Source of the DNA: Naegleria gruberi
Taxonomy: Eukaryota
Assembly (NCBI GenBank): GCA_000004985.1
Contig: GG738869.1
Reading direction: 5' to 3' (one strand)
Length of the DNA: 64,000 bases
Position 1 is the first letter of the stretch. The number at the start of each line of letters is the position of its first letter. The translations under genes and the position numbers were made by a program. The notes under the pieces are model-generated. The model was not told the DNA's origin. It saw only the letters and a list, made by a program, of their open reading frames with translations, and searched no databases. This document shows positions 34,671 through 53,189 of this stretch, piece after piece.

Positions 34671-36719
34671 TTAATCAGATAAATCTTCAAAGCATCTGCC
34701 TTCCTTTCTCATCAAATCAATGTGTGAATCAGCAACTCTGTCATCAACACCCTCAATATTCTTAATGATATCCTTGATGACATTGTAAGCTCTTGTTCCA
34801 AAACCTGAAACACCTCCACACAAATATAAATTTCCTTTTGATCTACTGAGCATTTGATAAACCTTTTCCTTGTTTTCATAAATGGCATCAGCAATCATCT
34901 TTCTGTCAGTTCCAGAGTAAGCAAAATGAGATTCAGAAATGAGACCATCCTTAACAGCTTGTTCAATTTCCTTCTTGTAAATAACTTCTTCAGGTCCTCT
35001 AACACCATAGAACAAAATTGAAGGACCGAATTTGATGTTTGGATTTCTCATTTGTTGAACTCTTCTTTCATCAATAAATCCTCTGAATGGAGCAATACCT
35101 GTACCACCAGCAATACAAACGATTGGTGTTTCAGGATTTTCTGGAAGTCTGAATGAAGAAGTTCTGATAACAACAGGACATGCAATAGATGGTTTGCACT
35201 CTGACAAGTAGTTGGAACACAATCCAAAGAATGTCTTGGTATTATCAATTGGCTGTACAAGTGGACCGTAGGTAATTCTCAAAATTTTTCCTTCTCCTCT
35301 CTTCTTTCTTTCTTCATTTTCTAATCTAGATGAAGAAATTGAATAGTATCTTGGTTGATTCTTTGGTAAGATACCAATGAGATCTTGCCATGTCACCTTA
35401 ATGGATGGGAATTTCTCTAACATATCTACAATATTTAACATTTTGTTCTTGACTTCAGTCAAGTATTTTTCACTCTTCCAAGATTCCAATGTAGCTTTTT
35501 CTTCGGCATTGGTTGCCTTGTCTGCCAAGAAACCTAATAAAGAAGGAGAAACGACACCATTCAAATCAAAGAATTGAGACATGGCCTGATATAAAGTAAT
35601 TGGGCTATCTCTAGTGGCAATAAATGGTGGCAATTCAATACTACATGTTGGTGTTTCAAGAGTAAAGATAATTTCCTCCATAGGCAAATCCAATTTCAAG
35701 AAACTTTCCAATCTTTTAACAAGAGATGATGGATTGGTTGGGAAAATGCAAATATGGTCACCAGTCTCATAATCTATTGGAGTTCCTTCAATATCAAACT
35801 CAATCTCAAGACGTAATCTATTGGATTCTGGACATAAATTCTTTACGGATTGAATCTTCAATGGGAATGGGTTCTTTGGTGAAACTGGTGAGCTGGCATC
35901 ATAGGAACGAACAAATTGTCTTAACTTGTCTCTATATTTGGCTTTATCTAGAAGACGAAAAAAATGCTTGCCATTTGTTGTCACACCTTCTCCCATTTGA
36001 CTTGTTTCACTTTGAGATGGTACTTGGCATGAAGATGCAGTAGATGAATTGGATGTTTCATTTTCCTTTTGTTTCAAGAATTCAATAAATTCATTCTTCC
36101 AATTTTCAAAATCAGTTTCAATACCTTCTTCACCACCATCGTCTCCTTCACCTCTCTTGAATTGTAAATCACTTCCCAAATCCTTTAAACGTTGTTCCAT
36201 TCTTTTACCAACAGCTTGATATCTTTCAGGGAAGTTGGCAGAATTTCCCAAACCAAAAATTGCATAATTTGGTGCATTGTTTTTGAAATCCAAACTCTTA
36301 GTATTGTCACTCATAAAAAATTCATAAAATGGTTTAGCATTGTCAGTTGGTTGACCTTCACCGTAGTTTGACATGATAAATAATACAATATTATACAAAT
36401 CATTTTTTTGTAAGCCAAATGACAAGGCCCTTTCTGGTTCAATATCACTCAAATCAACAACTTTAACACTTGACAAGAATGATGGATTTTTCTCCATCAA
36501 TTCGCTCTTCAAACCTTCAGCAAACATTTGTGCAGTTCCCGTTTGTGACCCATAACAAATTAACAAGTTTGTCTTGGACATGTCGACAAGACTTGCATGG
36601 AACTGTCTCATACATGCTGCTTTAAAAACACTTGTATTGGTATTCATTCTATGTTGACCAGAGCATGCATTGCGAAGTAATACACTGCAAGCATTCATTT
36701 TCAGTTTATTCATCATCAT
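34671..36719 (-). CDS. NADPH-dependent diflavin oxidoreductase (CPR/sulfite-reductase-alpha-like: flavodoxin-FAD-NADP) with N-terminal presequence
   Basis: FMN 'LICYGSQTGTAQ', 'YAIFGLGNS'. FAD 'RYYSISSS'. NADPH 'CIAGGTGIAPFRGF', 'LYLCGG'. The first ATG is at 36719 (the track start at 36725 is GTG). The N-terminal ~45 residues 'MMMNKLKMNACSVLLRNACSGQHRMNTNTSVFKAACMRQFHASL' are basic, hydroxylated and free of acidic residues. Confidence 0.85.
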   Translation of the reverse strand: MMMNKLKMNACSVLLRNACSGQHRMNTNTSVFKAACMRQFHASLVDMSKTNLLICYGSQTGTAQMFAEGLKSELMEKNPSFLSSVKVVDLSDIEPERALSFGLQKNDLYNIVLFIMSNYGEGQPTDNAKPFYEFFMSDNTKSLDFKNNAPNYAIFGLGNSANFPERYQAVGKRMEQRLKDLGSDLQFKRGEGDDGGEEGIETDFENWKNEFIEFLKQKENETSNSSTASSCQVPSQSETSQMGEGVTTNGKHFFRLLDKAKYRDKLRQFVRSYDASSPVSPKNPFPLKIQSVKNLCPESNRLRLEIEFDIEGTPIDYETGDHICIFPTNPSSLVKRLESFLKLDLPMEEIIFTLETPTCSIELPPFIATRDSPITLYQAMSQFFDLNGVVSPSLLGFLADKATNAEEKATLESWKSEKYLTEVKNKMLNIVDMLEKFPSIKVTWQDLIGILPKNQPRYYSISSSRLENEERKKRGEGKILRITYGPLVQPIDNTKTFFGLCSNYLSECKPSIACPVVIRTSSFRLPENPETPIVCIAGGTGIAPFRGFIDERRVQQMRNPNIKFGPSILFYGVRGPEEVIYKKEIEQAVKDGLISESHFAYSGTDRKMIADAIYENKEKVYQMLSRSKGNLYLCGGVSGFGTRAYNVIKDIIKNIEGVDDRVADSHIDLMRKEGRCFEDLSD

Positions 36720-36725
36720 CTTCAC

Positions 36726-37359
36726 TTAGTGGATGTAGTAACAGATGTGTGTGTGGATGTATTTTTTTTGAATCTTTAATTGTTCCTTCATCAATTATTG
36801 ATTCTTTTCATATAATATTATCATCGGGATGATGATTCATTCCTTTTGAGCAATTATGAGAATATTCAAATGCATGTATGTGTTTTATCTGAACGCACTA
36901 ATGGATTCTGAACTCTATTAATTTCTTTAATTGGCACTCGTAAAATCTTTAAATCTGTAGAGGGAGATGAAGAAAAAACAAGTCCCGTTACCCCTCATCT
37001 TCAATTTATTACCATCTCTTGTGTGAGTCATAGGCTGTCATCCGTTCAAGCAATTCTAATGAACAATGTTGTAGAAACAAGCAAAAATGAAGACCATTAA
37101 AGGAAACTAGTAATTTTTGGCGGGAGGTGTATGAAAGCTCTATTGGTACGCACAAATGGGTTTACCACCAATTCTGAACAAAAAAACATTGAAAAATAAT
37201 AAAACTCACAAATGGTGAATCTATTTCAATTAGACAATAAAGTAGCTGTCGTTAGCTGGATGTGTCGTAAGAGAATCTTTTGTTGGCTTTAAATATTCAC
37301 ATTTCTTCTTGTCACTTTGATCAACTAATAACAAAAAAACAACAACACACAACAACAAG
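36726..37359. promoter_or_regulatory. Shared divergent intergenic/promoter region between the diflavin reductase and hybrid cluster protein genes
   Basis: 634 bp lie between the two divergent start codons, with no ORF. Confidence 0.3.
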
Positions 37360-39297
37360 ATGATCAGACAATCTGCTTCTAAGCTTTTCTCTAGAGTTGC
37401 TTCCAAATCCATGCAAGTTAATGCTGGAAAGAATTTGGCTGCCTGTTCCATGATCAAGATGAATCATCAAACAACCACTCAAGCTAGAATGAATTTCTCA
37501 CAACAATACAATATGAATAGATCTGATAAGATGTTCTGTTTCCAATGTGAACAAACACAAAATGGTACTGGTTGCACAACTGTTGGTGTTTGCGGTAAGA
37601 CACCATCAGTTGCTGCATTGCAAGATTTAACCATTTATCAAACTCGTCAATTGTGTGCTTTGGCTACTTTGGCCAAGAGACAAGGATCTGTTGTTCCTTC
37701 ATTGATGGAAAAGGTTGATGACTTTGTTTTGAGAGCCATGTATAGTACTTTGACTAATGTCAATTTTGATGAACTCAGATTTGTCGAATTTTTGAAGGAA
37801 GGTTCTGAATTGACTCAACAAGTCAAGAAGGAAATGTTAGGTGGAAAGATTCCACAAGAATTCTCTGAATTGCTCACTGTCACTGAAACTGATGCTCAAT
37901 TCGATGCCATCTTGAGTCAAGCTACTTCTGCCACAGATGAAGCTACTGGAAAATTGATTGATATGGGTAAATCTGTTGGTGTTCAACCACATCACAAACA
38001 TTATGGAGCTGATACTAATGCTCTCCGTGAATTGCTCCAATATGGTCTCAAGGGTTTGTGTGCTTATACTAAGGAAGCTTCTCTCTTGGGTAAGAATGAT
38101 GCTGCTGTTGTCAATGAATTCATTAGAACTGCCATGTGTACTTTGGCTGGTGTTTCACCTGATGGTAAGGTTGACCCATACAATGCTAATGATATCATTG
38201 GTATGGCATTGAAGTGTGGTGAAGTCAACGTTAGAACTATGCAATTGATGGACGAAGGTGCTTTTGAACGTTTTGGTCAAATGGCTCCAAACAATGTTAG
38301 AACTACTCCACTCCCAGGTAAATCAATCTTGGTTTCTGGTCACGATATGGGTGATTTGTTGGCCATTTTGAAGCAAACTGAAGGAAAGGGTATCAATGTT
38401 TACACTCACGGTGAATTGTTGCCAGCTCATGGTTATCCTGAGCTCAGAAAGTTCAAACACTTAGTTGGTAACTATGGTGGTGCTTGGCAACAACAAAAGA
38501 TTGAATTCTCCAACTTTAAGGGTGCTATTGTCATGACTACTAACTGTATCATTGAACCAAGAAAGCAATATAAGGATAGAATCTTCACTACCTCAGTTGT
38601 TGGTTGGCCAGGTGTCACTCACATTAAGAATAGAGATTTCTCTGCTGTTATTGAAAAGGCTTTGGCTACAGAAGGTTTCCCAGAATCATTTGCCAATGAA
38701 AAGGTTGAACATGTCACAACTGGTTTCGGTCATCGTACAGTTTTGAGTCTTGCTGATGTTATTGTTAATGCTGTTAAGAGAGGTGATATTAAGAGATTCC
38801 ATCTTATTGGTGGTTGTGATGGTACTGAAGGTGAAAGATCATACTATAAGAATATTGCTACATCCCTTCCAAAGGATAACGTTATCCTCACTTTAGGTTG
38901 TGCCAAGTACAGATTCAACAAGATTGACTTTGGTACTATTACTACTCAAGATCCAAAGACTAATTCTGATGTTGCCTTGCCAAGATTGTTGGATGTTGGT
39001 CAATGTAACGATGCTTATGGAGCTGTAGTTATTGCTAGTGCTTTGGCTGAAGCTTTCGGTACTAAGGATCTCAACCAATTGCCACTCAACTTTGTTATTT
39101 CTTGGTTCGAACAAAAGGCTGTTGTTATTTTCTTGACAATGCTCCACCTTGGTTTGAAGAATGTCAGAATTGGTCCAAACTTGCCTGCCTTTATTCCTCC
39201 ATCCACTCTCCAATTCCTCGTTGAAACCTTCAAGTTACATCCAATCAATGCTAAGGATCCTGTTGCTGATATGGAAATGATGCAAAAGGGACTTTAA
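37360..39297 (+). CDS. hcp: Hybrid cluster protein (prismane/hydroxylamine reductase, Hcp) with N-terminal organellar-type presequence
   Basis: N-terminal Cys motif 'CFQCEQTQNGTGCTTVGVCGKTP'. HCP core motifs follow ('GHDMGDL', 'NYGGAWQQQ', 'IGGCDG', 'LDVGQCNDAYGA'). A ~50-aa basic extension 'MIRQSASKLFSRVASKSMQVNAGKNLAACSMIKMNHQTTTQARMNF' precedes the conserved start. Single exon. Confidence 0.9.
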   Translation: MIRQSASKLFSRVASKSMQVNAGKNLAACSMIKMNHQTTTQARMNFSQQYNMNRSDKMFCFQCEQTQNGTGCTTVGVCGKTPSVAALQDLTIYQTRQLCALATLAKRQGSVVPSLMEKVDDFVLRAMYSTLTNVNFDELRFVEFLKEGSELTQQVKKEMLGGKIPQEFSELLTVTETDAQFDAILSQATSATDEATGKLIDMGKSVGVQPHHKHYGADTNALRELLQYGLKGLCAYTKEASLLGKNDAAVVNEFIRTAMCTLAGVSPDGKVDPYNANDIIGMALKCGEVNVRTMQLMDEGAFERFGQMAPNNVRTTPLPGKSILVSGHDMGDLLAILKQTEGKGINVYTHGELLPAHGYPELRKFKHLVGNYGGAWQQQKIEFSNFKGAIVMTTNCIIEPRKQYKDRIFTTSVVGWPGVTHIKNRDFSAVIEKALATEGFPESFANEKVEHVTTGFGHRTVLSLADVIVNAVKRGDIKRFHLIGGCDGTEGERSYYKNIATSLPKDNVILTLGCAKYRFNKIDFGTITTQDPKTNSDVALPRLLDVGQCNDAYGAVVIASALAEAFGTKDLNQLPLNFVISWFEQKAVVIFLTMLHLGLKNVRIGPNLPAFIPPSTLQFLVETFKLHPINAKDPVADMEMMQKGL

Positions 39298-39468
39298 ATT
39301 GCGCCTATTTCTCTATTTCTGTAAAATATAAAAATAAAACATTAAAAAAAATTAAAAATCACCAAGTTTATTCTTTTGCTCTTTAACTCATTTCTAAACT
39401 AAATCAGAGAATTATGTAGCAAAAACAATGAGGAATATTTGAATTTTTTTTTGCAAAGGTTAAAAGGT

Positions 39469-39542
39469 TACAGCGAGCGGGGCTTGAACCCGCGACCTTA
39501 AGCGTGTTAGGCTTACGATCTAACCAACTGATCTATCGCTGC
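39469..39542 (-). tRNA. tRNA-Val (anticodon AAC)
   Basis: The minus-strand sequence GCAGCGATAGATCAGTTGGTTAGATCGTAAGCCTAACACGCTTAAGGTCGCGGGTTCAAGCCCCGCTCGCTGTA folds as a cloverleaf. It has a 7-bp acceptor stem with one G-U pair, a D-arm GATC/GATC, an anticodon loop CUAACAC and a T-arm GCGGG/CCCGC. It is followed by a T-tract. Confidence 0.8.
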
Positions 39543-39712
39543 TTACATTCATTATGAAATGTTTCTTAATATCGATTTACTAAAATACTCAACAGGTCTA
39601 TGGAGGTGCTTTATTTCTAAATTGAAATTTAGTTGCTCAAACGCTGAACCTAAACTAAATGGTTGTTTGATTTTTGTAAGAGACATTAATATTGATATTG
39701 AAACTCTAAAAA

Positions 39713-42700
39713 ATGGCGAAACGATCGTTCACTGATTTGCTAATTGTTACCTTGACTTCCGATGATCATTTCGAAGATATCACCATACCAGAGCACGATT
39801 GTGATTTATTGGCATTAAAACATTTTCAAAAAGTTGCAGCAGAACGTATCGAAAGAAATGAACAAATTTATTCTCATGTTTCCCATCTAAAATCAAGAAA
39901 TCACTCAAATAATTATGAAAAAATTACTAAAAATCCATTTCCGGACAATGATTGTAAATTAGCTTTTTTCAAGGTTTTAAAGTATGATGGCTTGTTGTTG
40001 CAGTTTGCATCGAATGAATTGAGAAATGATCGTGATGTTGTTTTGAGAGCTGTTAAAGAAAATGCAGGTTCTATCGAGGTGGTGAGTGAGGAATTGAGAA
40101 GTGATAGGGAATTTGTGGAGAAGGTTGTTATGATTGCTAAAGATAGAACGAGTTTGTCCACAAAAAGTTTTTTCAAATTTCTTGACAAGTTTCATGATGA
40201 TGAGTTGATTGTTAGAAAGGTGGTGGAGAAACATGTAAATTCTCTCGAGTTTGTATCACCAAGATTGAGAAATGATAGGTAGGTTGTTTAAATATCATTA
40301 CCAAAAGCAAATTCATACACAGAGAGATTGTTTGGAATGCTGTTAAAAGAAATGGATCATCTCTTCAATTCGTTCCAGAACATTTGAAAGATAGAGAATT
40401 GGTTATGCTTGCTGTGAAAACTGATTCCCAGGCACTTCTATTTGCACCAATAGAGTTTTTGAAAGATAAAGAAATTATTTCAAGAGCTGCTAAATTATCA
40501 GGACTTGCTATTAAATATGCCCACACAGAACTTAAAAACGACAGAGAGTTTGCTTTAGAGATGGTAAAGTTGAGAGCACTTGGTTATAATTATCTTTCGG
40601 AAGATCTAAGAGGAGATCGGTAAGTTGTTTGTGAAACTGTTGCAACAGTAATGAACGGAAAATTAGGGAAATTGCATTGGCAGCTATGAAGTCAATGCCA
40701 ACTTGTCTAAGAATGGCACCTAATCACATCAAAGATGATTTTGAAATTGTTTCCATTGCGGTTACGAAAAATTTATCAGCTCTTGTGTTTTCCTCACAGA
40801 GATTCAAAGATGATACAGACTTTATCTATAACTGTGCTTCAACTGCAAGTCAAATTATTTATTTTCTGAATAATCATGAATCTCTATTAGTAACTAATCG
40901 AGATTTCTGTTTACGGCTCATAGAAAAGAGTTGTGGATATGATTGTTTTAGAAATGCTCGAGATTTTGTGAAATTGGATAAGGAACTATGTCTGAAATTC
41001 ATACAAATACATCCAGATTGTTTGGAAGATGTTAAATGTGAAGATATTCTAAATGACAAACAACTCTTAATGGATTTATTGCCACACAGTGAAAAAATTC
41101 TTCTTCAAATTCCAAATGAGCTTTGTAATGATAGAGAACTCATGATGTGGGCATCGAAAATTCATGACAATGCTCTAAAATTTGCCTCTGAAGAGCTTTG
41201 TGCTGATAGAGAGTTTGTAAATGAGGCATTGCTTTGTGATTTTGGTAATTTTGAGTATTTATCAGAGGAGTTGAGAAGTGATAGAGAGTTAGTGGAAAAT
41301 ATTGTAAAAATTGATGGTTTCAATGTTCAATTTGTACCAGAATTATTTAGAAACAATAGAGAACTAATCATTACTTCAATCAGAAATGCATTCTCAGATA
41401 TTTCTCCATACTTAGGATATCAGTTGAAGGAAGATAGAGATATTATTTTGGAATCTGTGAAAAGATCTGGCATTATAGAAAATCTTCTACACGAGTTTAG
41501 AGATGATAGAGAAATTGTAATGATGGGAATTCAACAATTTGGACCAGAATTTCGATATGCTTCCAAGTTTTTACGTAGCGATAGAGAATTGGCATTAATT
41601 GCCATTAGAAACTTGTGCACTTTAGAGCATATTCCCAAGGAAATATTAGATAGAAAACTTGCCTATGAAGCTTGTAAACGTTCGGCCTTTAATTTAAAAT
41701 TTGCCTCTGAGTATAGAGAGGATGAACTAATTGTTCTTTCTGCATTAAGCAATGAAAATGGGGGTTTATATACCAAATATGTCGGTGAGCGGTTGAAGAA
41801 TGACAGAGATTTTATATTGAAAGCTTCCAAACTTCAACCTAGTATTATTGCTCATATTTCGACTGAGCTTCTCCAAGATAGAGAAATAATCATAAATGCA
41901 CTTTCGCATGATGGAAATGTACTTGCTCATCTACCAGAGGAATTCAAGAGTTGTAGAGAATATGTGGAAATAGCTGCTAACTCAAACCCACATTCACTTA
42001 AATACGCATCAGAAGATTTGAAGCAGGATCCAGAGTTGTTATATAAGGCAATTGCAACAGGGATTGCCAACTCTTTAGTTTCTGAACAATTTTTGGAGGA
42101 TGCTGATGAGTCAACTATACAAAAATGTATTGAAAATGGAGTTTCACTTCGTAGTTTTCCTAAGTCTTTAACCAGTAATAGAAACTTAGTTATTAAGGCT
42201 GTAAATATTAATATGGAGAATCTTAGATATGCATCCAAGGATCTAATTAACAAGGAACTGATTATGGAAATTTCACCAAAAAATTTTGATATATTACTAC
42301 TTCCAATCAAATGGAGAAGTGACAAAGATATTGCTTTAAAGGCTTTGGAAATGAATGGAAAATCAATAATATATATTTCTGATGAGTTGAAAAATGAATT
42401 TAAGCACAACAAGGAAATCCTATTGAAAGCAATGAAAACAGATAGCATTCCATTCCTTTATGCGAGCGATGATTTACAAAACGATCGTGATTTTATTTTG
42501 GAATCTGTTTCAACAAATGGCTTGGTATTGAGATATGTTGCATCCCATTACAAAGAAGATAGGGAAGTAGTTTTAAAGGCAGTTAAAAATCATGGAAATT
42601 CAATTCGTTACGGAGCCAGACATTTCATGAATGATAGAGAAATCATGTGGAATGCAGTTCAAAACTTGGGAGCCAAAATTCTTCCGTGCAATCCATTAAT

Positions 42701-43019
42701 TTATGGCTCCTTTGAAATACGAAGTGACCGTGAGCTAGTTCTAGAAGCCGTTCGCCATGATTATCACTCCCTTGAATATGTTGTCATTGAATTATTAAGC
42801 GACGAAGAATTCATGACGAAATGCGTGGAAATTAATATTAATTCTCTAATTTATGCTCACTACCAATTAAGATACAATGTAGATTTTCTGAAACGATTGA
42901 ACAAGACAGATATGATCAGAGAAGACACTGATTTACACAACAAAATAGATATTGAAGGACTATTAGGATACAATCCAAAACTTAAAGATTTGAATATTAT
43001 TGATAGAGCTGAAATTTAA
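39713..43019 (+). CDS. DUF4116-type tandem-repeat protein (~28 copies of a ~35-aa 'L(K/R)NDREFVLxAVKxNGxAL(K/Q)YASEEL' repeat); join(39713..40278,40323..40619,40667..43019)
   Basis: The repeat signature recurs throughout (RNDRDVVLRAVKENAGSIEVVSEELRSDREFVEKVV..., LKNDREFALEMV..., LQNDRDFILESVSTNGLVLRYVASHYKEDREVVLKAVKNHGNSIRYGA...). There are two introns: 40279..40322 (44 nt, GTAGGTTG) and 40620..40666 (47 nt, GTAAGTTG). Both join in frame; total length is 3216 nt. Confidence 0.8.
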
Positions 43020-43134
43020 CACAAACTATCACGTGATACCAGCTGGTAATGAGTTTACTAACAATGTTCCCATTTTCCAAGTTGAGTTTGGAATGTTGTC
43101 TTAACAATGAAACAGAAAAATATGTAAAAATTAT

Positions 43135-45111
43135 TTACTCTCTACTCTGTATCATGTTATTTACAATACGTTTGTAATTTGCTCTTGATAGAGAGACCAA
43201 ATCATCCAAACCAAATGAATAACTTGAATTATTATCGAGACAATATTCCATCATGCTAATGAGTTCCAAAATCTGTTCTCTAAACATTGGTATACTCACA
43301 ACAGTATCCTTCTTTGTTGTTGCATGTAAGGAGAATCTGGAAACGAGTGTAGAACGACATATTATAGTAATAGGAATTGTGGTTGACTTGATGAGTTTGT
43401 TTAGCTCTTTTAACACTCTCTTACAATCCATTGATGTTGGAAATAAGAACATGGCCCAATATAACTGAAAGTGTATACTCTCCTTTAACAATCTAGATTT
43501 GGATGTCAGATCTTGAATTGCTTGTTTTGTAACTTGGTGATAATCTAATGTATTGTCTTTCAGTACATTCATCCATCCAATTAACAACTTAGTGGCAAAC
43601 AGAATTGGAGAATTCCCAAAATTGAGCATTAAGAAATTCAAATCATTTCGAGCCAAATGAAATTCTGCTTGTTGGGCTAGAAAGATTGATCTGTTTAGAT
43701 AGGCATTGAATCTATCTCTAGCATGAGTTGCATTTGTACATGCCATATCAAAATATTGTCTAGCCCTTACATAATTTCCATTCAGTTCCATAACAAAAGC
43801 AACATTGACCATTGCACTAATGTACCTAGAATCTATTCGAATGGCATTTAGAGAATTATCCTTAGACTGTTTCCTCAGATTTAGAATTTCAGTTGCTTGC
43901 TCCAAATTAGACCTTGCCTCAAGTTGACGAGAAAGAGCCAACTGTACAAGTGCCTTATTATTGAGAGCTCGTGTATCATTGGGATTTAAACTATCTAATA
44001 CATACTGAAATTTAGAAGCAGCCTCATGAAAGTTTTCTGAAAACAGTAAATAATAGCCATGAAATTTGTATGAAAAGCTGCGAACATCATCCCAAATTCC
44101 TTTGACGATTGATTGACACATACGAACCAAGGAGAATTCAACTTGGTTATATCGAATTTGACCAACCTTTGTAACTTGAGAAAATTTGTTTTCACTCTTT
44201 GCTAATTGTCCAACAAAGTCAACAAGGTCTGGATTCGGATTGTTGGTGGGGTTTGTTTCAGCTCGATCTTGGAACATGTAGAGCCGAATAATAATTTCTT
44301 CCATAGTTTCGTATTGAGGAATTCTAGTTTCTTGACTTTGAAAACAACTCCATAACAATGGTACAAGATTACTCTCCTCCAATCTGTGTCTAGCTTCTTC
44401 AGAATCATTTTCGTATAGAATTGCCGCAATTTCATCATTCTCCAAGGTTGAAAATGTTTGATTTAGATTTCCTGTAATTAATTGAAATAAAATTGACCCC
44501 AAGGCAAAGACATCATAGGTTTCACTACTTCCTTCACTTGGATAGTTGTTTCCACAACTGTTTGAAAACTCATCATCATCATCAAGAACATCTCCAACAT
44601 GTTGCATCTTTTCAAAATCTGCAAGGACTATTCTAATCACATCGTTTTCATAGCTTTCAACAAGAATATTCTTCAATGTTATATCTCTGTGCACAATGTT
44701 GTTATGATTCCTCAATTCGACAAGAGCACTCGCTAGTTGATAACCTATTTGATATATGATTGGAAATGGAAGTAATCTCATTTGTTTAGTTGTCTCATCA
44801 AACAACATTGAATACAGATCACACTTATAGAATGGCATTTCAATTACCAGTGCATTGTTTTCAAAGTAAGATCGGTAAATTTTCACAATGTTTGGATGGT
44901 CCACCTTTTCTATCATTTCTGCAATTTCCTTTTGTTTTTGTAAATGTTCATCAAGTTTCTCACATTTCATATTATTTTCTTCCCTCTCAATTCTATAAAC
45001 CTTATTTGTGGATATTTCACGAATGACGTGGATTAGAATAGGGGAACGACGACTAGTGTGCAGTAATTGATAGTTGACTTTGTCTTTTTTCCATTTTTCA
45101 GTAATAGACAT
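43135..45111 (-). CDS. Kinase-like (probable pseudokinase) N-terminal domain fused to a TPR-like C-terminal helical region
   Basis: 'IVHRDITLKNILV' (HRD retained), 'LADFEK' (DFG replaced by DFE) and no GxGxxG loop. The C-terminal half has TPR-like helical repeats. ATG at 45111. Confidence 0.65.
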   Translation of the reverse strand: MSITEKWKKDKVNYQLLHTSRRSPILIHVIREISTNKVYRIEREENNMKCEKLDEHLQKQKEIAEMIEKVDHPNIVKIYRSYFENNALVIEMPFYKCDLYSMLFDETTKQMRLLPFPIIYQIGYQLASALVELRNHNNIVHRDITLKNILVESYENDVIRIVLADFEKMQHVGDVLDDDDEFSNSCGNNYPSEGSSETYDVFALGSILFQLITGNLNQTFSTLENDEIAAILYENDSEEARHRLEESNLVPLLWSCFQSQETRIPQYETMEEIIIRLYMFQDRAETNPTNNPNPDLVDFVGQLAKSENKFSQVTKVGQIRYNQVEFSLVRMCQSIVKGIWDDVRSFSYKFHGYYLLFSENFHEAASKFQYVLDSLNPNDTRALNNKALVQLALSRQLEARSNLEQATEILNLRKQSKDNSLNAIRIDSRYISAMVNVAFVMELNGNYVRARQYFDMACTNATHARDRFNAYLNRSIFLAQQAEFHLARNDLNFLMLNFGNSPILFATKLLIGWMNVLKDNTLDYHQVTKQAIQDLTSKSRLLKESIHFQLYWAMFLFPTSMDCKRVLKELNKLIKSTTIPITIICRSTLVSRFSLHATTKKDTVVSIPMFREQILELISMMEYCLDNNSSYSFGLDDLVSLSRANYKRIVNNMIQSRE

Positions 45112-45236
45112 GATGATTTTTGTTTAGTGTGTAAGTTTTGCATGATGGTTGTTTACAAGGAAAAGACCAGATCAAAATCCAAAATGGAATTATTCCAAAA
45201 TAATAATTTTAAAATTTCATATCCAAGTTAACTCGT

Positions 45237-46739
45237 TTATAATACAATTTGTACAAATTCATTGATCAAGTGACTGTCATGCATTTTGTATCTTGTCATG
45301 GTATCATTTCCAATTCTTTCCAATTCAACTAAGCAATCATCTAAATCCTTCTTTGTGTGAGCACTAGAAATGCAGAATCTTACTCTGGCCAAAGCAGTTG
45401 GACAAGCAGGAGCACCAACAATAACAATGGCAATTCCTCTCTCGAGGCAAATTCTAGAAAATGCAATCAATTTTGTCAAGTGATAAATCATCATGACGAT
45501 AACAGGTGAATCTCTATCTGAAATAATTTCAAATCCAAGTTTTTTCAAAGAATCCCCAAAGTAATTGGTATTGAAACTCAATTGGTCTAATTTTTCCTTT
45601 CCAATACTTGTGTTATCTTCACCCATAATGCAAGTGAGAGCTGACAATGCCTGTTGGGCACAAGGAATTGATATTGAAGTACCATAAATCAATCCAAAGC
45701 AAGATTTTTTCAAATAATCAATGACCTCAGCATCTCCAGAAATGTATCCTCCCACAGAATTAAAACTCTTTGTAAAGGTTCCCATCAAGATGTCAATATC
45801 CTTTGGGTCAACATTTTGCTGTTCACAAACACCTCTTCCAGTTTTACCCAAAGCTCCACACGAATGAGCCTCATCCACATAGAGATGGAACTTGTATTGC
45901 TTCTTCAATTCAACTACTCTTTTCAAATTGACAATTTCACCTTCCATACTGTAAATTCCCTCAACAATGACAATAATCTTCTTCCATGGTTTTCTATTTC
46001 CTGGTCCTGGTTGACCATCAATAATGTTCTTTCTCAATAATTTCTCCAAATGATCCATATCATTGTGTCTGAAACGAAGAACTGTTGGAGTACCTTCTGA
46101 AGCTCTAGTTCCATTCACAATACTTGAATGGTTCAAAGAATCGGACAAGATGAGACAATCTCTAGTTGGAGCCAATAATGGAATAACTGTAGAATTGGTT
46201 GCAAATCCCATGGACACAACCATTGCACTTTCCTTTCCAATAAATCTAGCAACTCTCTTTTCCAATTCTCTATGAATTGGAGTATAACCATATTCAGAAT
46301 ATGCAGAACCAGAAGCAACACCATATTTATCAAAACTCTCCAAAACCTGATCAACTACATGTGAAGGACTTTCAGAAAATCCTAGATAATTATAACTAGC
46401 CATATTTAAACAACTTTTCAATTTACCATTCGTGTCAATATTTGCAACTCTTTCAGTGTTTGGATTTCTCATCATGACTTGAATATGTGAAGATGGTCTG
46501 CTTGCAATCGGTCTGTGGAAACAATCAGAACATTTCCCATAGATTCTTCTCACAAAGAAATCATCATCTACGAGGGGTTTCTTACTAGCTTCATCAGGAA
46601 ACCTTTCATAATTTGTTTTATCGATCGGACCAATGAAGAGAATATGAAACAAATCGCTGATCTTTCCCAATATAAATACAATTAGTAGATTTGTATGGGT
46701 TAGAAATAAAGTCAACGGGGAAGGATCACAATGCGTCAT
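45237..46739 (-). CDS. LCB2: Serine palmitoyltransferase long-chain-base subunit 2 (LCB2/SPTLC2), alpha-oxoamine synthase family
   Basis: PLP-lysine motif 'GTFTKSFNSVGGYISG'. 'NMASYNYLGF', 'DEAHSCGALGKTGRG' and 'RRIYGKCSDCFHRP' are hallmarks of SPT subunit 2. Confidence 0.85.
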   Translation of the reverse strand: MTHCDPSPLTLFLTHTNLLIVFILGKISDLFHILFIGPIDKTNYERFPDEASKKPLVDDDFFVRRIYGKCSDCFHRPIASRPSSHIQVMMRNPNTERVANIDTNGKLKSCLNMASYNYLGFSESPSHVVDQVLESFDKYGVASGSAYSEYGYTPIHRELEKRVARFIGKESAMVVSMGFATNSTVIPLLAPTRDCLILSDSLNHSSIVNGTRASEGTPTVLRFRHNDMDHLEKLLRKNIIDGQPGPGNRKPWKKIIVIVEGIYSMEGEIVNLKRVVELKKQYKFHLYVDEAHSCGALGKTGRGVCEQQNVDPKDIDILMGTFTKSFNSVGGYISGDAEVIDYLKKSCFGLIYGTSISIPCAQQALSALTCIMGEDNTSIGKEKLDQLSFNTNYFGDSLKKLGFEIISDRDSPVIVMMIYHLTKLIAFSRICLERGIAIVIVGAPACPTALARVRFCISSAHTKKDLDDCLVELERIGNDTMTRYKMHDSHLINEFVQIVL

Positions 46740-47170
46740 TGAAAAACTGTACTGTTAGTAATATATATTTGTTATTATTGTTAAAAACTGTTGAAGAATA
46801 TTTTGAGTGGTTGTTTTTGTGGCTGTTTTGTGTGTGGCTATGAGGAAATGCACGGTGAGTGTGTTGACCTTTTTTTTGAGTAATACTTGAATAAGATTCG
46901 ATGAGCGAATTGAAATATTTTTGAGAATCGAATCTTTCTCATTATCCTTCAAGAAGAAGAGGAGTTGCTGCTTGTCGCCGTTTGTTCGTTTATTGCTGTT
47001 GGTGTTTGGGCAATTGGAAGATAGAACGAACTTCGGGTGTACACCATGTCGTTGAATGGTTGTGTTTTCCTTTTAGATGGAATTTGATCATGCAATTTCC
47101 TGAACACTCCCTGACCAAAGGTAAGTTTTAGAAGAGTTGTTACGTTTGATTTTTTTGAAATGGATGTGAA

Positions 47171-47251
47171 GCAGGGGTTCCCGAGTGGTCAAAGGGGGTA
47201 GACTCAAGTTCTACTGCGCAAGCTTCGTGGGTTCAAATCCCACCTTCTGCA
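47171..47251 (+). tRNA. tRNA-Leu (anticodon CAA), type II with long variable arm
   Basis: GCAGGGGTTCCCGAGTGGTCAAAGGGGGTAGACTCAAGTTCTACTGCGCAAGCTTCGTGGGTTCAAATCCCACCTTCTGCA. D-loop GAGTGGTCAAAG, anticodon loop CUCAAGU, T-arm GUGGG/CCCAC and discriminator A. It is followed immediately by GCTTTTTTT. Confidence 0.85.
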
Positions 47252-47252
47252 G

Positions 47253-47260
47253 CTTTTTTA
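47253..47260 (+). terminator. Pol III oligo-T terminator of tRNA-Leu
   Basis: A T7 tract begins 2 nt after the tRNA 3' end. Confidence 0.5.
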
Positions 47261-47438
47261 CAAAATCAACTTATAAGATGTATAAACTTTTTTTATATCT
47301 GCATGTTGTATTTGATGTCTACCATCATATCTGAAAGAATCTATTTTTTATTTACTATTTTAGTTCGAAGAATAGCCTCAGATCAAAAACGTTGATATTT
47401 CACTTGAAAAAATCTCATCACTTTACAATTTTAAAAAA

Positions 47439-49445
47439 ATGTCTCAACAACCTTCAAGCTGCCTTTTATTGTCTCTACCCGACGAATGTCTATCACTGGT
47501 TTTTTCCAACCTCTCCATACAAGAACTATTCTTCCGAGCCAGATCTACCTGTAGAAATTTTCATGAAATTATTGTGGGTATCGCTTCACCATTTCAACAA
47601 AAGGAAAACAAGAATTGCTTGATAAGAAATCAAAAGTTGAAAATTTTGTGTTTAAATAATAATCCAATCAGATTAAAATCACTGTGGGAGTGTATTAGAA
47701 AGGGTTATTTTGAAGAATCAGTAACTAAATTCAGTATTACTGCTAGAAGAACTGAATTGTTGGAAACTTTGCTTGACAAGAATGATTTCTTTGTAAAATA
47801 CTTTTCAAATTTGGAATGTTTAAAATTTGGATCAAAGAATTTGTGCAGTGAACATATTTCTGAATTGTTTAATCCTGATAATTCCAAACATTTAAGAAAG
47901 TTAACAATATTGAAGTTGGCAAATAATAATTTGGATATCAAAACAGCAAGGAGCATAGCCAAGTGTGAAAACTTAACTAATTTGACATCACTAGATTTGA
48001 GCACTAATGTTATGGAAGGTGACTGTATAGAATTACTAACGAGTCCATATTTAGAAAAGTTAACAAATCTCAATTTGAGTGGTAATTATATTACAACAAT
48101 ATTATGGAAAGAAAAATTCAAATTCAAAAACTTGGAAAAGATATCAATTGAAAATCCATTTGAGTTCGTTTTCAATAATCAATCTGAAACATATTTATTT
48201 AGCAAGCTCACATATCTAGATGCTTCTGACTCAATTGAGGAGGAAAAAAGATTCTCTGCTATGAAAAAGTTTGATTCCATACCAACAATCACATATTTGA
48301 ATTTAAATTATGTAGAATTAACACAAGAATCCATACTATCCCTTATTGCAGATAGTAGATGCCTTTCCAAGTTGGAAAATTTAGAATTAATCGGTTGCTC
48401 ACTTACTGGAACTGGATTTGCAATCTTGACTAGAAGCAGATATTTATCAAATTTGAAAAATCTGGTTGCTGAAAGTAATGACATTGATTTTGAAGGTTTT
48501 GTACACTTTGGAACAGATTCGTTTACTTTGAAGAATCTAATTACTCTAGATTTAATTTCAAATGACTTTAGCGTGAAATCTTATGAATATTTATTAAGAG
48601 AACCCTCTTTAACAAAATTGGAGAAACTTTATTGTGATAATGTTGATGAGGTTGAGGCAAAATACATTGCAGAACACCAAGAAAATATTACAGGAATAAC
48701 TGATTTGGTATTTACTGGCTATTCTGAAATGGAAGATGACAGTATGAAATATTTGGCCATGTTAAAATTACTCAAACTCAAGAAATTGAAATGCACTGGC
48801 ACAGGAGGCACCTTTTCAGGATTGATTTACTTTTTAGAAAATTGCACTTGTGAAAATTTGGAAACATTAGAATTTGGTAGGGTAAAATTTACAAATATTG
48901 ACGAGCAAATGAAGGCCATCTCATCACTACTCTCCAATAAGCACTTCTCCAAGTTGGAAACCCTAACTTTGGATGGACTTGCTGATGAACCTTTGAGAAT
49001 GTTATTGGATAATATGGACGACGATAAGTTATTGAGCAAACTTTCAACTTTATCAATTTCAGAAATTAATGACGATGCATTCAGAGTTCTAACAAGTCAT
49101 CCAAATAGTTCCAAATTGAAAATGCTTGCTCTTATGGAAGGAGAGCTTTCAGATGAGTCAATTGAACATTTTGTTAATAGTCCACACTTTCATGAGCTTA
49201 ATTATTTGGATTTGATTGGAACTGAAATATCACGTGAATCGAGTAAGCGTATTGCTCACAGTACCAACATTCCAAATCTCGAATATTTATTTGGTTCTTT
49301 TATTTTGGCTGATTTCGAACAGGAAACTAATTTACCGAAACTTTCTCATCTCTATTTAACAGAAAATGGTTTGGAAACCCCAAAAGATGATGATGATGAT
49401 GGATTGTATGAAGCAACAGAAGTGGAAGATCAACTTTCAAATTAA
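47439..49445 (+). CDS. F-box / leucine-rich-repeat (RNI-like) protein
   Basis: N-terminal F-box 'LPDECLSLVFSNLSIQELFFRARSTCRNFHEII'. About 15 LRR-RI type repeats follow (LTNLTSLDLSTN..., LSKLENLELIGCSLTGTG...). Confidence 0.75.
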   Translation: MSQQPSSCLLLSLPDECLSLVFSNLSIQELFFRARSTCRNFHEIIVGIASPFQQKENKNCLIRNQKLKILCLNNNPIRLKSLWECIRKGYFEESVTKFSITARRTELLETLLDKNDFFVKYFSNLECLKFGSKNLCSEHISELFNPDNSKHLRKLTILKLANNNLDIKTARSIAKCENLTNLTSLDLSTNVMEGDCIELLTSPYLEKLTNLNLSGNYITTILWKEKFKFKNLEKISIENPFEFVFNNQSETYLFSKLTYLDASDSIEEEKRFSAMKKFDSIPTITYLNLNYVELTQESILSLIADSRCLSKLENLELIGCSLTGTGFAILTRSRYLSNLKNLVAESNDIDFEGFVHFGTDSFTLKNLITLDLISNDFSVKSYEYLLREPSLTKLEKLYCDNVDEVEAKYIAEHQENITGITDLVFTGYSEMEDDSMKYLAMLKLLKLKKLKCTGTGGTFSGLIYFLENCTCENLETLEFGRVKFTNIDEQMKAISSLLSNKHFSKLETLTLDGLADEPLRMLLDNMDDDKLLSKLSTLSISEINDDAFRVLTSHPNSSKLKMLALMEGELSDESIEHFVNSPHFHELNYLDLIGTEISRESSKRIAHSTNIPNLEYLFGSFILADFEQETNLPKLSHLYLTENGLETPKDDDDDGLYEATEVEDQLSN

Positions 49446-49516
49446 ATAAATTTCTGTTCGAATCAAAACTAATTCTAATTTGGTAATTCTCATAGTTTTA
49501 CAAAGTCGAAAAAAAA

Positions 49517-49718
49517 ATGTCCTACTTACTATCAGTGCTTCTGCCAGATGTCATCCTTTCAATCGTGCTCATTCTTTTCTTTATTGTCGTTTCTAGACAA
49601 TTGACACTCTTTAATAATTACAAACAAAGAATATTGAGAGAGAAGGTTAAAACTTCAAGAGAATACAATCGGAAGAAAATTATGGCAGATACAGAAGAGG
49701 GAAATGGTCAGGAGGAAC
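49517..49718 (+). CDS. Possible 5' exon / TM0 helix of the downstream OSCA-TMEM63 gene (or a short upstream ORF)
   Basis: 'MSYLLSVLLPDVILSIVLILFFIVVSRQLTLFNNYKQR' resembles the OSCA N-terminal TM0 followed by a basic loop. A clean in-frame GT-AG join to the main ORF could not be found. The only in-frame option is a 26-nt GTAATT...TCAG intron, which is too short to accept. Confidence 0.25.
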
Positions 49719-49800
49719 GTAATTCGAATACAGACGAAACTCAGACAAATCAAGAAGAAGTCGGGACGAATTGCTTGTGGATCCACAAATTGTTTCTACC

Positions 49801-52035
49801 ATGTCTTATTGGGAGAAATCAATGAGAGAGGGTGTTGCGTCATCATTTGTGTTTTTCATGGAATTAATTAGAAATTTATATGTTTCAATAATTAGTTTAG
49901 TTTCGTATGGATATAGAAGAAGGAATTTATACAAAATTTATAGAAAGTTCGGAAGAGAAAAGGCTATTTACTTGAGTTTCCAGCTTCATTTATTGTGGAT
50001 TAGTCTATTATGCTCAATTATTGTCTGTGCTGTCTTGTTACCTTTACATTTGACAGGTAGAGAAATTGACAACTCGGAATATGCATATAATATCGTTGCT
50101 CTTACCTCTGCTCTCAGAGCAGCAACTTCACCAGTCAAGATGTTTGCTCACGTAGCCATTCTAATTGTGTTTATAATTATTACATTAGTTTTCATGGTTT
50201 CTTTCAATAGAAATAGGTTTAGTTCTTCACTTCTTTTGGTAGGTGAAGATTCTAATAGCACAGAACAGGATTCTACCCTTTCCAATGACGAAACTGTTAT
50301 CATTTCTCCATTTACAATAGTTTTAGATGGAATTCCAAAAGAATCATCTCAGAAAAGTGTCGAACAATTCATTGAAGAAAATTTTAATGGTGGATTGAGT
50401 GCGAATGATGAAAATAGTAAGATTGTAAAGATATTTCATGTGCCAAATCTTGTGGATCGGTTAAATCTCAAAGAATTGGAAGAACATTTGGAAAGAGAAT
50501 TGGAACATTTCATGCATTTAAAAGGAAAATCAAATTATGATGTTGCCAAACGTCACATAGTTCATGAAATGAGACCATTGTACTCGGATGATTTGAGATT
50601 CAAATTGTGTGGATGTACTACATATAGTACCAATTTGAAAACTATGACTACTGATGAGGCAGTAGAATATTTAAGATTGGAATATTCAGATTGTAAAAGA
50701 ATGGTGGAACAATGGGATGGAGAATATACTTCAATGTTTCTTACAGATGAAAGACAATCACAAGATGAGGAATATTTATCTCAAATCAAACAAGTGAAAT
50801 CATCTGGAAAGTGCTTTATAGTTTTTAAAAAGGTTGAACATGTTGATGAAGCAATTGAAAAGAATCGAATAATGTTCAATGATTCTTCAGTTTCCTTGAT
50901 GAAACTATTAATTGAACCGCAAGATATCAATTGGCACTTTATTGGCGGTACCTCCAAATACTTTTCCTTGAGAAACTTTTGCATGATTAGTTTAATATTC
51001 TTTGTATTGTTGGTATTTTCTGGACCACCATCCATTTTACAATCACTTCAAGCATTGGGATCTCCTATTCTTAAAGCTGTCAAACTTGGTGACTTGTCTG
51101 ATTTACTATTTCACTACTGTCCTTCTCTGTTGATTTTCATTTTCAGCAAATTGTTTCCAATATTTTTCAAAAAGATTACTCAAACAGAGAAGCACCTTTC
51201 CAAATCATTTTACAGTAGGATATTATTAGTGAGATTGTTTACATTTTCCATTTTGAATATTCTCATTTTACCAGGATTGTGGATTATCTCAGCTTTCCTC
51301 TTTTTAGTTTTCGCAAATGATGGCAAACATTTGGATATCATGTTCTTGCCAAAAACAATTGAAACAATGATTTCTACATTGCTACAATTCATGGTTATGG
51401 AGAATGTTTACGAATTGGTCAGATTTGGCAAAACACTTTATTATATTTGGAAGACAACATTTAATTGTTACAGAAAAGCAAGAACTCCCACTCAAATTTT
51501 AAAACTAATTAAGGAAACTAAGGAATTCGATATGGAAGAGAATGTTTCAAACATGTTGGGTATATTATGTATGTCGATGGTCTATTCATTCTGTTGTCCA
51601 CTTGTAATGCCATTGGCATTCCTTTGCATCTTTATCAAGCACTGGTTTGATAGATGTGTTATTGAAGAGGAATTCACTCATCACTCCAATATCAATGAGA
51701 AGGATGACAAACTCGATTTTACCAGTAGTTTGAGATTATCCAAGCTATTGATCGTTCTTGTTCTTACAACATTGAGCATTGTTGGAATGATTGTAATTTT
51801 AGGATTTTCTTACTTGTTTTTTACTAGTCTAATGTATATTATACATTTGGGAGTTTGTGGAGCTTGCTTAGCTATTCTTCTATTAATTACCTTGGCGTTG
51901 ATTTTCAAACAAAACTCAAGTGTCAGATCAAATAAGAAAGATATTGCAGAACAGCAAGAACGAATGCTTGATCCAAATTCATTCTCACAACAAGTTCAAG
52001 ATATTCTCAATGTGGAAAATATTCTCAAGTTTTGA
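49801..52035 (+). CDS. OSCA/TMEM63/CSC1-family mechanosensitive (hyperosmolality-gated) cation channel (DUF221, 7TM)
   Basis: The architecture matches OSCA: TM1-2, then a cytosolic RRM-like domain ('TIVLDGIPKESSQKSVEQFIEENF', compare TVLVRNVP..VEHFF). 'FIVFKKVEHVDEA' precedes a 7-TM block ('CCPLVMPLAFLCIFIKHWFDRC'). The first ATG in frame is at 49801 (the track start at 49771 is TTG). Confidence 0.75.
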   Translation: MSYWEKSMREGVASSFVFFMELIRNLYVSIISLVSYGYRRRNLYKIYRKFGREKAIYLSFQLHLLWISLLCSIIVCAVLLPLHLTGREIDNSEYAYNIVALTSALRAATSPVKMFAHVAILIVFIIITLVFMVSFNRNRFSSSLLLVGEDSNSTEQDSTLSNDETVIISPFTIVLDGIPKESSQKSVEQFIEENFNGGLSANDENSKIVKIFHVPNLVDRLNLKELEEHLERELEHFMHLKGKSNYDVAKRHIVHEMRPLYSDDLRFKLCGCTTYSTNLKTMTTDEAVEYLRLEYSDCKRMVEQWDGEYTSMFLTDERQSQDEEYLSQIKQVKSSGKCFIVFKKVEHVDEAIEKNRIMFNDSSVSLMKLLIEPQDINWHFIGGTSKYFSLRNFCMISLIFFVLLVFSGPPSILQSLQALGSPILKAVKLGDLSDLLFHYCPSLLIFIFSKLFPIFFKKITQTEKHLSKSFYSRILLVRLFTFSILNILILPGLWIISAFLFLVFANDGKHLDIMFLPKTIETMISTLLQFMVMENVYELVRFGKTLYYIWKTTFNCYRKARTPTQILKLIKETKEFDMEENVSNMLGILCMSMVYSFCCPLVMPLAFLCIFIKHWFDRCVIEEEFTHHSNINEKDDKLDFTSSLRLSKLLIVLVLTTLSIVGMIVILGFSYLFFTSLMYIIHLGVCGACLAILLLITLALIFKQNSSVRSNKKDIAEQQERMLDPNSFSQQVQDILNVENILKF

Positions 52036-52082
52036 TTTTTGTTTGACAATCAACACTCAATTCTGTAACTCTTAAGGCAATC

Positions 52083-53189
52083 TCAATAAAAAATGGAAAT
52101 ATCAGAAAATGTTAAATTATTCAATTGACCTTTCAGATGTGTAAAGAATATTATTTCTTCTGAAGATTTAGTTTCAAAAAATGTTCTTTGATAAATAAAT
52201 CCATGAAAACGTCCAAAAACAATTGTTTCCTTTTCATTCTCAATTGCTATTTGAAGGGGTTCCTCTTTAAGCAGATGAAAATGTGTGGCAGATCTTACGG
52301 CAGTTGACATACTGGAGCAGCAGACATCACTGAATGATCCCTCAATTTTAATAGGTTGAAATTCTTTGACTATTCTTGGCGAAACTAATCCAGTACATTG
52401 CTTTGAATTGTTTAGTCCTGCACAATAAATTTTACCATCCTCTAATAGTAAAGCTAGATGAGAAAATCCACCAACCATCTTTTTAATTCCACAATTGATT
52501 GATAATTTCAATTCATTCAACTCTCCACTAACATTGCCAAATCCAATTCCATTCTTTCTAATAAATAGACGATTGTTTTCCAATAAGATGAATTGTGCAT
52601 TATTGGTGGAACAACATGCAAATTGTTTCACTCTATATTCCGGAAATGGAAAATGAATATTTTCAACCATTTCCTCTTTTTCATAAATAGTTCCATCAAT
52701 TGTCTGAACTAACCAACAAGTTGACATGATTCCACTTCCAACACAATTAAGTAATGAAGTGTGTGAGATGAAGAATTTGTGCATTTTCAATGTTTGAGTA
52801 TCAAATTCAAACAAAGATCCATCCATCATTTCGAATAAAATAAATCTTGAATTATTCGAAACAACTCTCTTCATAGATTGCCCTCTTTTTGAATTGCTCA
52901 ACTCAGACAGCAATGAACTAAACTTTTTTTTCTCTCCTTGAAATACGAAATATTCACTCTCACTCCCTTCGAACAGAAACATTGAATAGGAACCATCACT
53001 ATTCCCACCACAACAAATATACGAAACATGTATTGTTGCATTTTCTTGAATCTCGGAGGGTGAAAAATTATTTTCTTCAGCTTTAGGAAAATTTGAAGGT
53101 TTAATTTCCATCTTGTGCCAACGAGCAGGAAAATCCAAACCTAAATTCTTAAATTTGGTGTGAAAGATTTCACCATAAACTTTGAGCAT
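52083..53189 (-). CDS. RCC1-like repeat protein (beta-propeller); start uncertain
   Basis: 'GGFSHLALLLEDGKIYCAGLNNSKQCTG' and 'CCGGNSDGSYS' are RCC1-type blades. The track start at 53252 is GTG and is preceded by an in-frame TAG coinciding with a possible acceptor. The first in-frame ATG is at 53189. Confidence 0.5.
   Translation of the reverse strand: MLKVYGEIFHTKFKNLGLDFPARWHKMEIKPSNFPKAEENNFSPSEIQENATIHVSYICCGGNSDGSYSMFLFEGSESEYFVFQGEKKKFSSLLSELSNSKRGQSMKRVVSNNSRFILFEMMDGSLFEFDTQTLKMHKFFISHTSLLNCVGSGIMSTCWLVQTIDGTIYEKEEMVENIHFPFPEYRVKQFACCSTNNAQFILLENNRLFIRKNGIGFGNVSGELNELKLSINCGIKKMVGGFSHLALLLEDGKIYCAGLNNSKQCTGLVSPRIVKEFQPIKIEGSFSDVCCSSMSTAVRSATHFHLLKEEPLQIAIENEKETIVFGRFHGFIYQRTFFETKSSEEIIFFTHLKGQLNNLTFSDISIFY

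Follow-up and report, generated by a model that had tools for sequence, protein, structure and literature searches.

Does the gene for the hybrid-cluster protein (HCP) of Naegleria gruberi NEG-M start where the public databases let it start, or does it carry an additional N-terminal sequence that directs the enzyme into the mitochondrion? The question is raised by a stretch of 64,000 nucleotides from contig GG738869.1 (assembly GCA_000004985.1; hereafter the window), AT-rich eukaryotic DNA with a GC content of 33%, in which the open reading frame (ORF) of the HCP gene extends upstream of the methionine that is equivalent to the first residue of bacterial HCPs, Met58. The first ATG of this ORF is found at position 37360; the nearest in-frame stop codon lies 13 codons 5' of it, with no intervening start codon. 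In an exact-sequence look-up, the part of the protein that begins with Met52 proved identical to the N. gruberi records XP_002676958.1, EFC44214.1 (NAEGRDRAFT_55285) and CAI11382.1 (Q2PCB1, 'Hybrid-cluster protein'). The public records thus begin 51 codons 3' of the first ATG, at a methionine that is neither Met1 nor Met58, and for the 645-residue form starting at Met1 and the 588-residue form starting at Met58 no match was found in exact look-ups. As argued below, this nuclear gene is very probably translated from ATG 37360 into a precursor of 645 residues, the first 46 to 57 or so of which are a matrix-targeting presequence. The result is a correction of a start codon and gene model and adds one more lineage with a mitochondrial HCP; the biology itself is not new.

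The Pfam profile of the Prismane/HCP family (PF03063) covers residues 58-628 of the precursor with a score of 482 bits (cut-off 27; E 2e-144). The orthologous proteins, with lengths of 649-655 residues, share 76% identity with it in N. lovaniensis (653 residues), 71% in a third Naegleria species (Naegleria sp.; 655 residues) and 66% in Willaertia magna (649 residues). In the solved bacterial HCPs 7de4 and 1e2u, and likewise in solved archaeal HCPs, residue 1 pairs with Met58, the first residue of the sequence 'MFCFQCEQT', and it is this equivalence that sets the length of the extension at 57 residues. The initial annotation, in which an extension of about 50 residues had been described as amphipathic, basic and devoid of aspartate and glutamate, was right in that the extension is real, but the end that it had given, position 37520, falls inside codon 54. 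In the extension sequence that it had quoted, 46 residues are correct, but the 13 residues SQQYNMNRSDKMF before the cysteine motif had been skipped. The description of the composition stands with the exception of one acidic residue, D56.

Several properties indicate that the extension is protein-coding. About 1% of all 57-codon stretches at this base composition would be free of stop codons by chance. The codon adaptation of the extension, calculated against a codon table of the gene body, is 0.72 in frame, but only 0.27 and 0.40 in the other two frames; for comparison, windows of the gene body reach values of 0.68-0.84, and the 171 nucleotides farther upstream have values of 0.35-0.41. Selection was assessed with a contig of environmental origin that belongs to a closely related Naegleria (L004, encoding protein P0009), the extension of which can be aligned without gaps over all 57 codons and differs at eight synonymous and seven non-synonymous sites (pS 0.24, pN 0.05, dN/dS 0.18, Fisher p 0.002). 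The nucleotide identity between the two sequences, 91% over the extension and 90% over the core that follows it, drops to 44%, with indels, in the 45 nucleotides directly 5' of the ATG, and therefore the boundary of conservation is located exactly at ATG 37360. As judged from these comparisons of sequences, the extension is translated and under purifying selection. The initial annotation had named an unspliced intron or an artefact from the untranslated region (UTR) as a finding that would refute it; the frame-specific codon usage together with the dN/dS ratio excludes both. Extensions of 62-70 residues, counted from the first ATG, are also present in N. lovaniensis, the third Naegleria and W. 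magna, and in these orthologues the similarity of sequence is lost upstream of Met58, while the composition is kept. On the minus strand, two ORFs (37230..37457 and 37321..37482) overlap with the extension; they are without support and were dismissed.

The translated extension has the character of a mitochondrial presequence. It contains nine lysine or arginine residues, eleven serine or threonine residues and the single acidic residue mentioned above, and all 531 windows of 57 residues within the HCP core contain at least two acidic residues. The hydrophobic moment reaches a maximum of 0.66 at residues 4-14, compared with 0.34-0.75 in mitochondrial proteins of N. gruberi, and an AlphaFold2 model contains a short helix at residues 8-16 within a segment (residues 1-71) that is detached from the fold and has pLDDT values below 50. 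A hydrophobic core of the kind found in signal peptides or membrane anchors was not found in the extension, its maximum Kyte-Doolittle mean over 12 residues being 0.5. The features of the extension are within the range shown by mitochondrial proteins of N. gruberi that have TargetP values of 66-90 and by NDUFS6, which is encoded in the same window, as the initial annotation had stated; the model starting at Met52 lacks these features. The first residues, 'MIRQSASKLFSRVASKS', are closely similar to the N-terminus of the N. gruberi homologue of MGM101, 'MIRQAASSLLSKS'. A candidate site for the mitochondrial processing peptidase (MPP), R43-M-N-F46↓S47, has counterparts in the orthologues (TRMY↓S, KANF↓S and SRFY↓S, the arrow denoting the presumed cleavage), with TRMY↓S of protein P0003 being canonical and SRFY↓S belonging to P0006, and it resembles RSF↓S in NDUFS6 and RLF↓S in HslU of N. 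gruberi.

The location of the protein itself can be taken from a published organelle proteome of N. gruberi, in which 4198 proteins were quantified across OptiPrep gradients and 376 markers were used to define a mitochondrial cluster of 946 proteins (Horváthová 2021, PMC8134430). XP_002676958.1 is included in the mitochondrial list (Sheet 1 of Supplementary Data 2), with 59 unique peptides, a coverage of 79% and a hydroxylamine reductase of Acanthamoeba as the best annotated BLAST match (PMC8134430). The computed molecular weight of the Met52 form, 65.211 kDa, equals the figure in that table. The log2 intensities of HCP are 29.7, 31.6 and 33.7 in the fraction order of the table, mitochondrial proteins rise likewise, and mitochondria are enriched most strongly in the densest gradient fraction (PMC8134430). 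The prediction programs had nevertheless called the protein non-mitochondrial (PSORT II C56, MultiLoc2 C91, TargetP O89; PMC8134430), because the sequence that they were given was the truncated Met52 model. In the main text of that study no discussion of HCP was found, and mentions of the accession were not found in paper texts either. Thus, the reading as a transit peptide, which the initial annotation had proposed from composition, is upheld by the coding character and purifying selection of the extension, by features like those of N. gruberi mitochondrial proteins and by published organelle proteomics.

From these results, we infer the import route, the cleavage site and the role of the enzyme as follows. 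TOM receptors would recognize the amphipathic basic helix (residues 4-18 or thereabouts), and import of the precursor would proceed via TOM and TIM23. The presequence would be removed probably near R43-M-N-F46↓S47, so that the mature class-I HCP would begin about 11 residues before the bacterial-type N-terminus 'MFCFQC'. In the matrix, the [4Fe-4S] and hybrid [4Fe-2S-2O] clusters would be inserted into the protein, which might then act as a reductase of nitric oxide (NO) or hydroxylamine, most plausibly in hypoxia or under nitrosative stress.

It should be noted that several points weigh against translation from Met1 followed by import. Met52 is the first residue not only of the JGI/RefSeq model but also of CAI11382.1, a record derived from cDNA (Andersson et al. 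2006, PMC1484493); were the cDNA full length, most of the extension would be missing from the transcript. The candidate MPP motif is inexact, because its arginine is found at -4, one position beyond the textbook R-3 (the motif being R-2 or R-3). A list obtained by co-fractionation, in the manner of LOPIT (localization of organelle proteins by isotope tagging), may include contaminants and is not proof of a location in the matrix, and the proteome is uninformative on the N-terminus, since the database that was searched lacked the extension. In addition, N. gruberi HydA, which had once been predicted to be mitochondrial, has been reported to be cytosolic, according to a citation in PMC13632651. 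A start at a downstream methionine had been named in the initial annotation as a further refuting observation, and the public records do indeed use Met52; that start, however, is at odds with the evidence for selection and with where the protein is located. The simplest reading, which the position of Met52 suggests, is that a cDNA clone was truncated at its 5' end, that translation was assumed to begin at the first ATG within it, and that the genome annotation then copied it.

A rival reading is a dual localization, in which a long transcript would give rise to the mitochondrial precursor and an internal transcription start, or initiation at Met52 or Met58, would give rise to a cytosolic isoform. 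The cDNA clone apparently starts between positions 37490 and 37513, as would be expected for such a second transcript, and the anaerobic metabolism of N. gruberi is partly cytosolic, HydA being the example cited in PMC13632651. Met58 is conserved in 36 of 36 aligned homologues, including 23 with long extensions in which it is no longer the start codon, and this retention could reflect either a structural constraint or an alternative start that has been kept. However, 5' truncation is common in oligo-dT-primed cDNA clones of an mRNA of 2 kb, Met58 may be kept for structural reasons, and the abundance profile of HCP tracks the mitochondrial markers, so that a dual localization appears improbable.

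The extension might alternatively be a 5' UTR with a fortuitously open frame, in which case translation from Met52 or Met58 would yield a cytosolic HCP. This would agree with the public records from both cDNA and genome, with the invariance of Met58 and its equivalence to the bacterial start, and with the roughly 1% of comparable stretches that stay open by chance. It would not explain the gene-like and frame-specific codon usage, the low dN/dS ratio in the absence of indels next to a true upstream region that has diverged with indels, the conservation of an open, basic extension in all four heterolobosean orthologues, or the presence of HCP in the mitochondrial proteome. Moreover, there are six in-frame AUGs 5' of Met58 that would capture scanning ribosomes, and therefore leaky scanning from a long mRNA to Met58 is unlikely. 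A UTR is thus a very improbable explanation of the extension. That the extension is translated but serves as a disordered regulatory tail or as a signal for another compartment (endoplasmic reticulum or peroxisome) is extremely improbable. Peroxisomes did co-purify in part with mitochondria in the proteome study (PMC8134430), and the match to the MPP motif is not exact, but the extension lacks a hydrophobic core, HCP is listed in the mitochondrial and not in the peroxisomal cluster, and a composition that is conserved between genera while the sequence is poorly so is the signature of presequences, unlike that of functional domains.

Table 1. Coordinates of the HCP gene, its parts and other features of the window.
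Feature	Position	Strand	Remarks
HCP gene, complete	37360..39297	+	645-aa precursor plus stop codon, intron-free; ORF listing, Pfam PF03063 (E 2e-144), orthologue identity
N-terminal extension, 57 codons, putative cleavable mitochondrial presequence	37360..37530	+	composition, codon usage, dN/dS, AlphaFold2
Predicted amphipathic basic helix, residues 4-18 (QSASKLFSRVASKSM)	37369..37413	+	putative TOM-receptor binding element
Candidate MPP site R43-M-N-F46↓S47	37486..37500	+	[RK]-x-(x)-[FY]-S, placed equivalently in orthologues
Met52 codon	37513..37515	+	start in XP_002676958.1, EFC44214.1 and CAI11382.1 (594 aa); exact look-up
Met58 codon	37531..37533	+	equivalent of bacterial Met1; invariant in 36 aligned homologues
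Conserved HCP core	37531..39294	+	seven hybrid-cluster ligands H328, E352, C396, C486, C514, C549, E584 all present
Cubane [4Fe-4S] motif C60-x2-C63-x8-C72-x5-C78	37537..37593	+	class-I spacing Cx2Cx8Cx5C; first Cys is C60
P450-reductase-like diflavin reductase (Flavodoxin_1 + FAD_binding_1 + NAD_binding_1)	34671..36719	-	from first ATG; Pfam; 682-aa precursor
Basic N-terminal extension of the reductase, 46 codons, possible presequence (weaker evidence)	36582..36719	-	6 K/R, 1 D/E, no hydrophobic anchor
Divergent intergenic region, 640 bp	36720..37359	.	presumed promoters and 5' UTRs of HCP and reductase
tRNA-Val(AAC)	39469..39542	-	within the ~16-kb insert
Two DUF4116-repeat genes	39713..40282 and 40686..43019		within the ~16-kb insert
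Kinase-TPR gene	43135..45111	-	within the ~16-kb insert
tRNA-Leu(CAA)	47171..47251		within the ~16-kb insert
F-box/LRR gene	47439..49445		within the ~16-kb insert
NDUFS6-like zf-CHCC protein, 134 aa	58588..58992	-	textbook presequence ending RSF↓SSS; syntenic with N. lovaniensis; in-window comparator

The core to which the presequence is attached is, as far as its sequence can tell, an intact class-I HCP. Class I is defined by a spacing of the cubane cysteines of Cx2Cx7-8Cx5C and class II by Cx2Cx11Cx6C; the motif was located in 118 homologues, each of which has the spacing of the N. gruberi protein, while the class-II HCP of E. coli has a longer spacing in the alignment. Residues 1-549 of 1e2u can be aligned full length with the core (E 3e-131). 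The ligands of the hybrid cluster in Desulfovibrio vulgaris we take to be H244, E268, C312, C406, C434, C459 and E494 of 1e2u, and they align with H328, E352, C396, C486, C514, C549 and E584, respectively. All eleven positions, that is, the four cubane cysteines and the seven hybrid-cluster ligands, are invariant across the alignment of 36 sequences, and the AlphaFold2 model of the core has a pTM of 0.86. The likeness to class-I HCPs such as D. vulgaris 1E2U and Methanothermococcus 8CNR thus includes the full-length three-domain fold, the cysteine spacing and all seven hybrid-cluster ligands, while the bacterial and archaeal proteins lack an N-terminal extension. The Naegleria lineage has, furthermore, an insertion of ten residues, TQDPKTNSDV (residues 530-539, ~38947..38976), between the ligands C514 and C549. 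It is common to Naegleria, Willaertia and the related proteins P0005 and P0006, and none of the solved HCPs of bacteria and archaea has it.

N-terminal extensions of HCPs are not confined to heteroloboseans. In a survey of 121 sequences, comprising the N. gruberi protein and its 120 best matches, 35 have basic, acid-poor extensions of 25-137 residues, and most of these are from eukaryotic transcript-sized contigs or are EukProt entries; the remaining sequences start at most 15 residues from the first cysteine. The expectation of the initial annotation that an HCP core usually begins a few residues before the cysteine motif is borne out by 82 of the 121 sequences. In a neighbour-joining tree, the heterolobosean HCPs form a clade with 100% support, and its union with three other extension-bearing sequences has 90% support. 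The extension-bearing HCPs do not form a single split, and a few short models, possibly truncated gene calls, nest among them. Where prokaryote-style gene callers were applied to metagenome contigs, some sequences that group with the extension-bearing HCPs of eukaryotes were given spurious ORFs upstream or were called as short HCP models (L003 7591..8004; P0008 and P0010), and therefore databases of this kind probably overstate the number of eukaryotic HCPs 'without extension'.

A mitochondrial HCP had been regarded as unusual in the initial annotation, in view of the aerobic, complex I-containing organelle, but this opinion has been overtaken. The HCP of Acanthamoeba has been assigned to the mitochondrion by proteomics and by microscopy of the epitope-tagged protein, it is induced under hypoxia and anoxia, and the organelle contains the complete complexes I-V (Cell 2026, PMC13632651). 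In addition, mitochondrial HCPs have been predicted across diverse eukaryotes by companion work cited in that paper. The parallel between A. castellanii (AcMitoCarta) and N. gruberi is close, as in both cases a free-living, facultatively anaerobic amoeba has a mitochondrial HCP next to full aerobic oxidative phosphorylation including complex I. The two differ in the kind of evidence, since tagging, microscopy and induction by anoxia are available for Acanthamoeba, while the location in Naegleria is derived from co-fractionation in gradients and from sequence, and they belong to different supergroups, Amoebozoa and Discoba. Naegleria thus joins Acanthamoeba as an aerobic protist with complex I and a mitochondrial HCP, in keeping with the view, put forward recently, that anaerobic enzymes of this kind have resided in mitochondria since ancient times.

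The HCPs of Trichomonas vaginalis likewise reside in an organelle of mitochondrial ancestry and were likewise found by organelle proteomics. Unlike the mitochondrion of Naegleria, the hydrogenosome of T. vaginalis is anaerobic and has neither a genome nor a respiratory chain, and trichomonad targeting signals are typically much shorter. HCPs are included in the published proteome of this organelle (PMC3174187), and they have also been reported for Nyctotherus and Chlamydomonas (for the latter, in PMC4773151). According to that paper, HCP1-4 of C. reinhardtii are eukaryotic HCPs with N-terminal organellar targeting extensions and a link to anaerobiosis, as is the case here; Chlamydomonas is, however, a plastid-bearing alga, and its HCP localizations have been described as awaiting rigorous validation (PMC13632651). 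The corrected start codon reconciles the sequence of the N. gruberi gene with the existing proteome, and the gene is one that is used in studies of eukaryotic anaerobic metabolism.

The neighbour of the HCP gene encodes, in divergent orientation, a diflavin reductase that resembles P450 reductases, and its public model has been shortened in a similar manner. Read from position 36581, the gene is identical to XP_002677035.1, so that the public model starts 46 codons past the first ATG. The reductase is the row after HCP in the mitochondrial list, with 41 peptides, and it was predicted to be non-mitochondrial on the basis of the truncated model (PMC8134430). Basic N-terminal extensions are also found on the orthologous reductases P0121 and P0122 and on the more distant P0124. 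The codon usage of the N. gruberi reductase extension is ambiguous, with values of 0.54 in frame and 0.61 in another frame, compared with a minimum of 0.65 in the gene body. The public records of HCP and reductase both lack the N-terminal extension, and therefore the targeting predictors called both proteins non-mitochondrial; gene models that are trimmed by homology systematically conceal the presequences of enzymes that are bacterial-like or were acquired laterally.

Orthologues of the reductase occur in Naegleria and Willaertia only, with 53-62% identity; canonical P450 reductases have about 30%, and a close orthologue outside the heteroloboseans was not found. The protein differs from the canonical microsomal NADPH-cytochrome P450 reductase in that the FMN, FAD and NADPH domains are present, but the N-terminus is basic and is not a hydrophobic anchor. 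It is tempting, though speculative, to propose that it may be the mitochondrial NADPH-dependent electron donor of HCP. The two genes would then form a dedicated mitochondrial module with a common divergent promoter region, in which a diflavin enzyme that is specific to heteroloboseans and bears a presequence would supply the class-I HCP with electrons from NADPH, so that NO or hydroxylamine could be detoxified in hypoxia. We regard such a module as rather unlikely. If it existed, the reductase would be a eukaryotic, non-homologous replacement for the bacterial Hcr, and the electron donor of a mitochondrial HCP would have been named. The arrangement is reminiscent of Hcp-Hcr of E. coli in that an HCP gene adjoins a gene for a flavin-dependent pyridine-nucleotide oxidoreductase that could supply electrons. 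It is not a two-component system of the Hcp-Hcr type, however, because the neighbour has no ferredoxin domain and the HCP belongs to class I: in E. coli, a class-II HCP (Cx2Cx11Cx6C) is combined with Hcr, an NADH oxidoreductase that is an FAD/[2Fe-2S] protein, while in Naegleria a class-I HCP is accompanied by a reductase with FMN and FAD, and the two genes are divergent and not in an operon.

The head-to-head pair of reductase and HCP genes is present in three Naegleria genomes, and no conserved promoter blocks were found in an alignment of the intergenic regions of the three species. The adjacency was considered as evidence for a functional linkage and rejected, since synteny with N. lovaniensis extends over the whole block and the two genes are not neighbours in Willaertia, and therefore adjacency alone carries little weight. 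The gene order shared with N. lovaniensis is Brix-lipase-reductase-HCP-...-ion channel-S8e-UPF0172-NDUFS6. In comparison with N. lovaniensis (L001), about 16 kb (~39300..55000) are inserted between the HCP gene and the ion-channel gene of N. gruberi, with the flanking order conserved; the tRNA and protein-coding genes within this insert are listed in Table 1.

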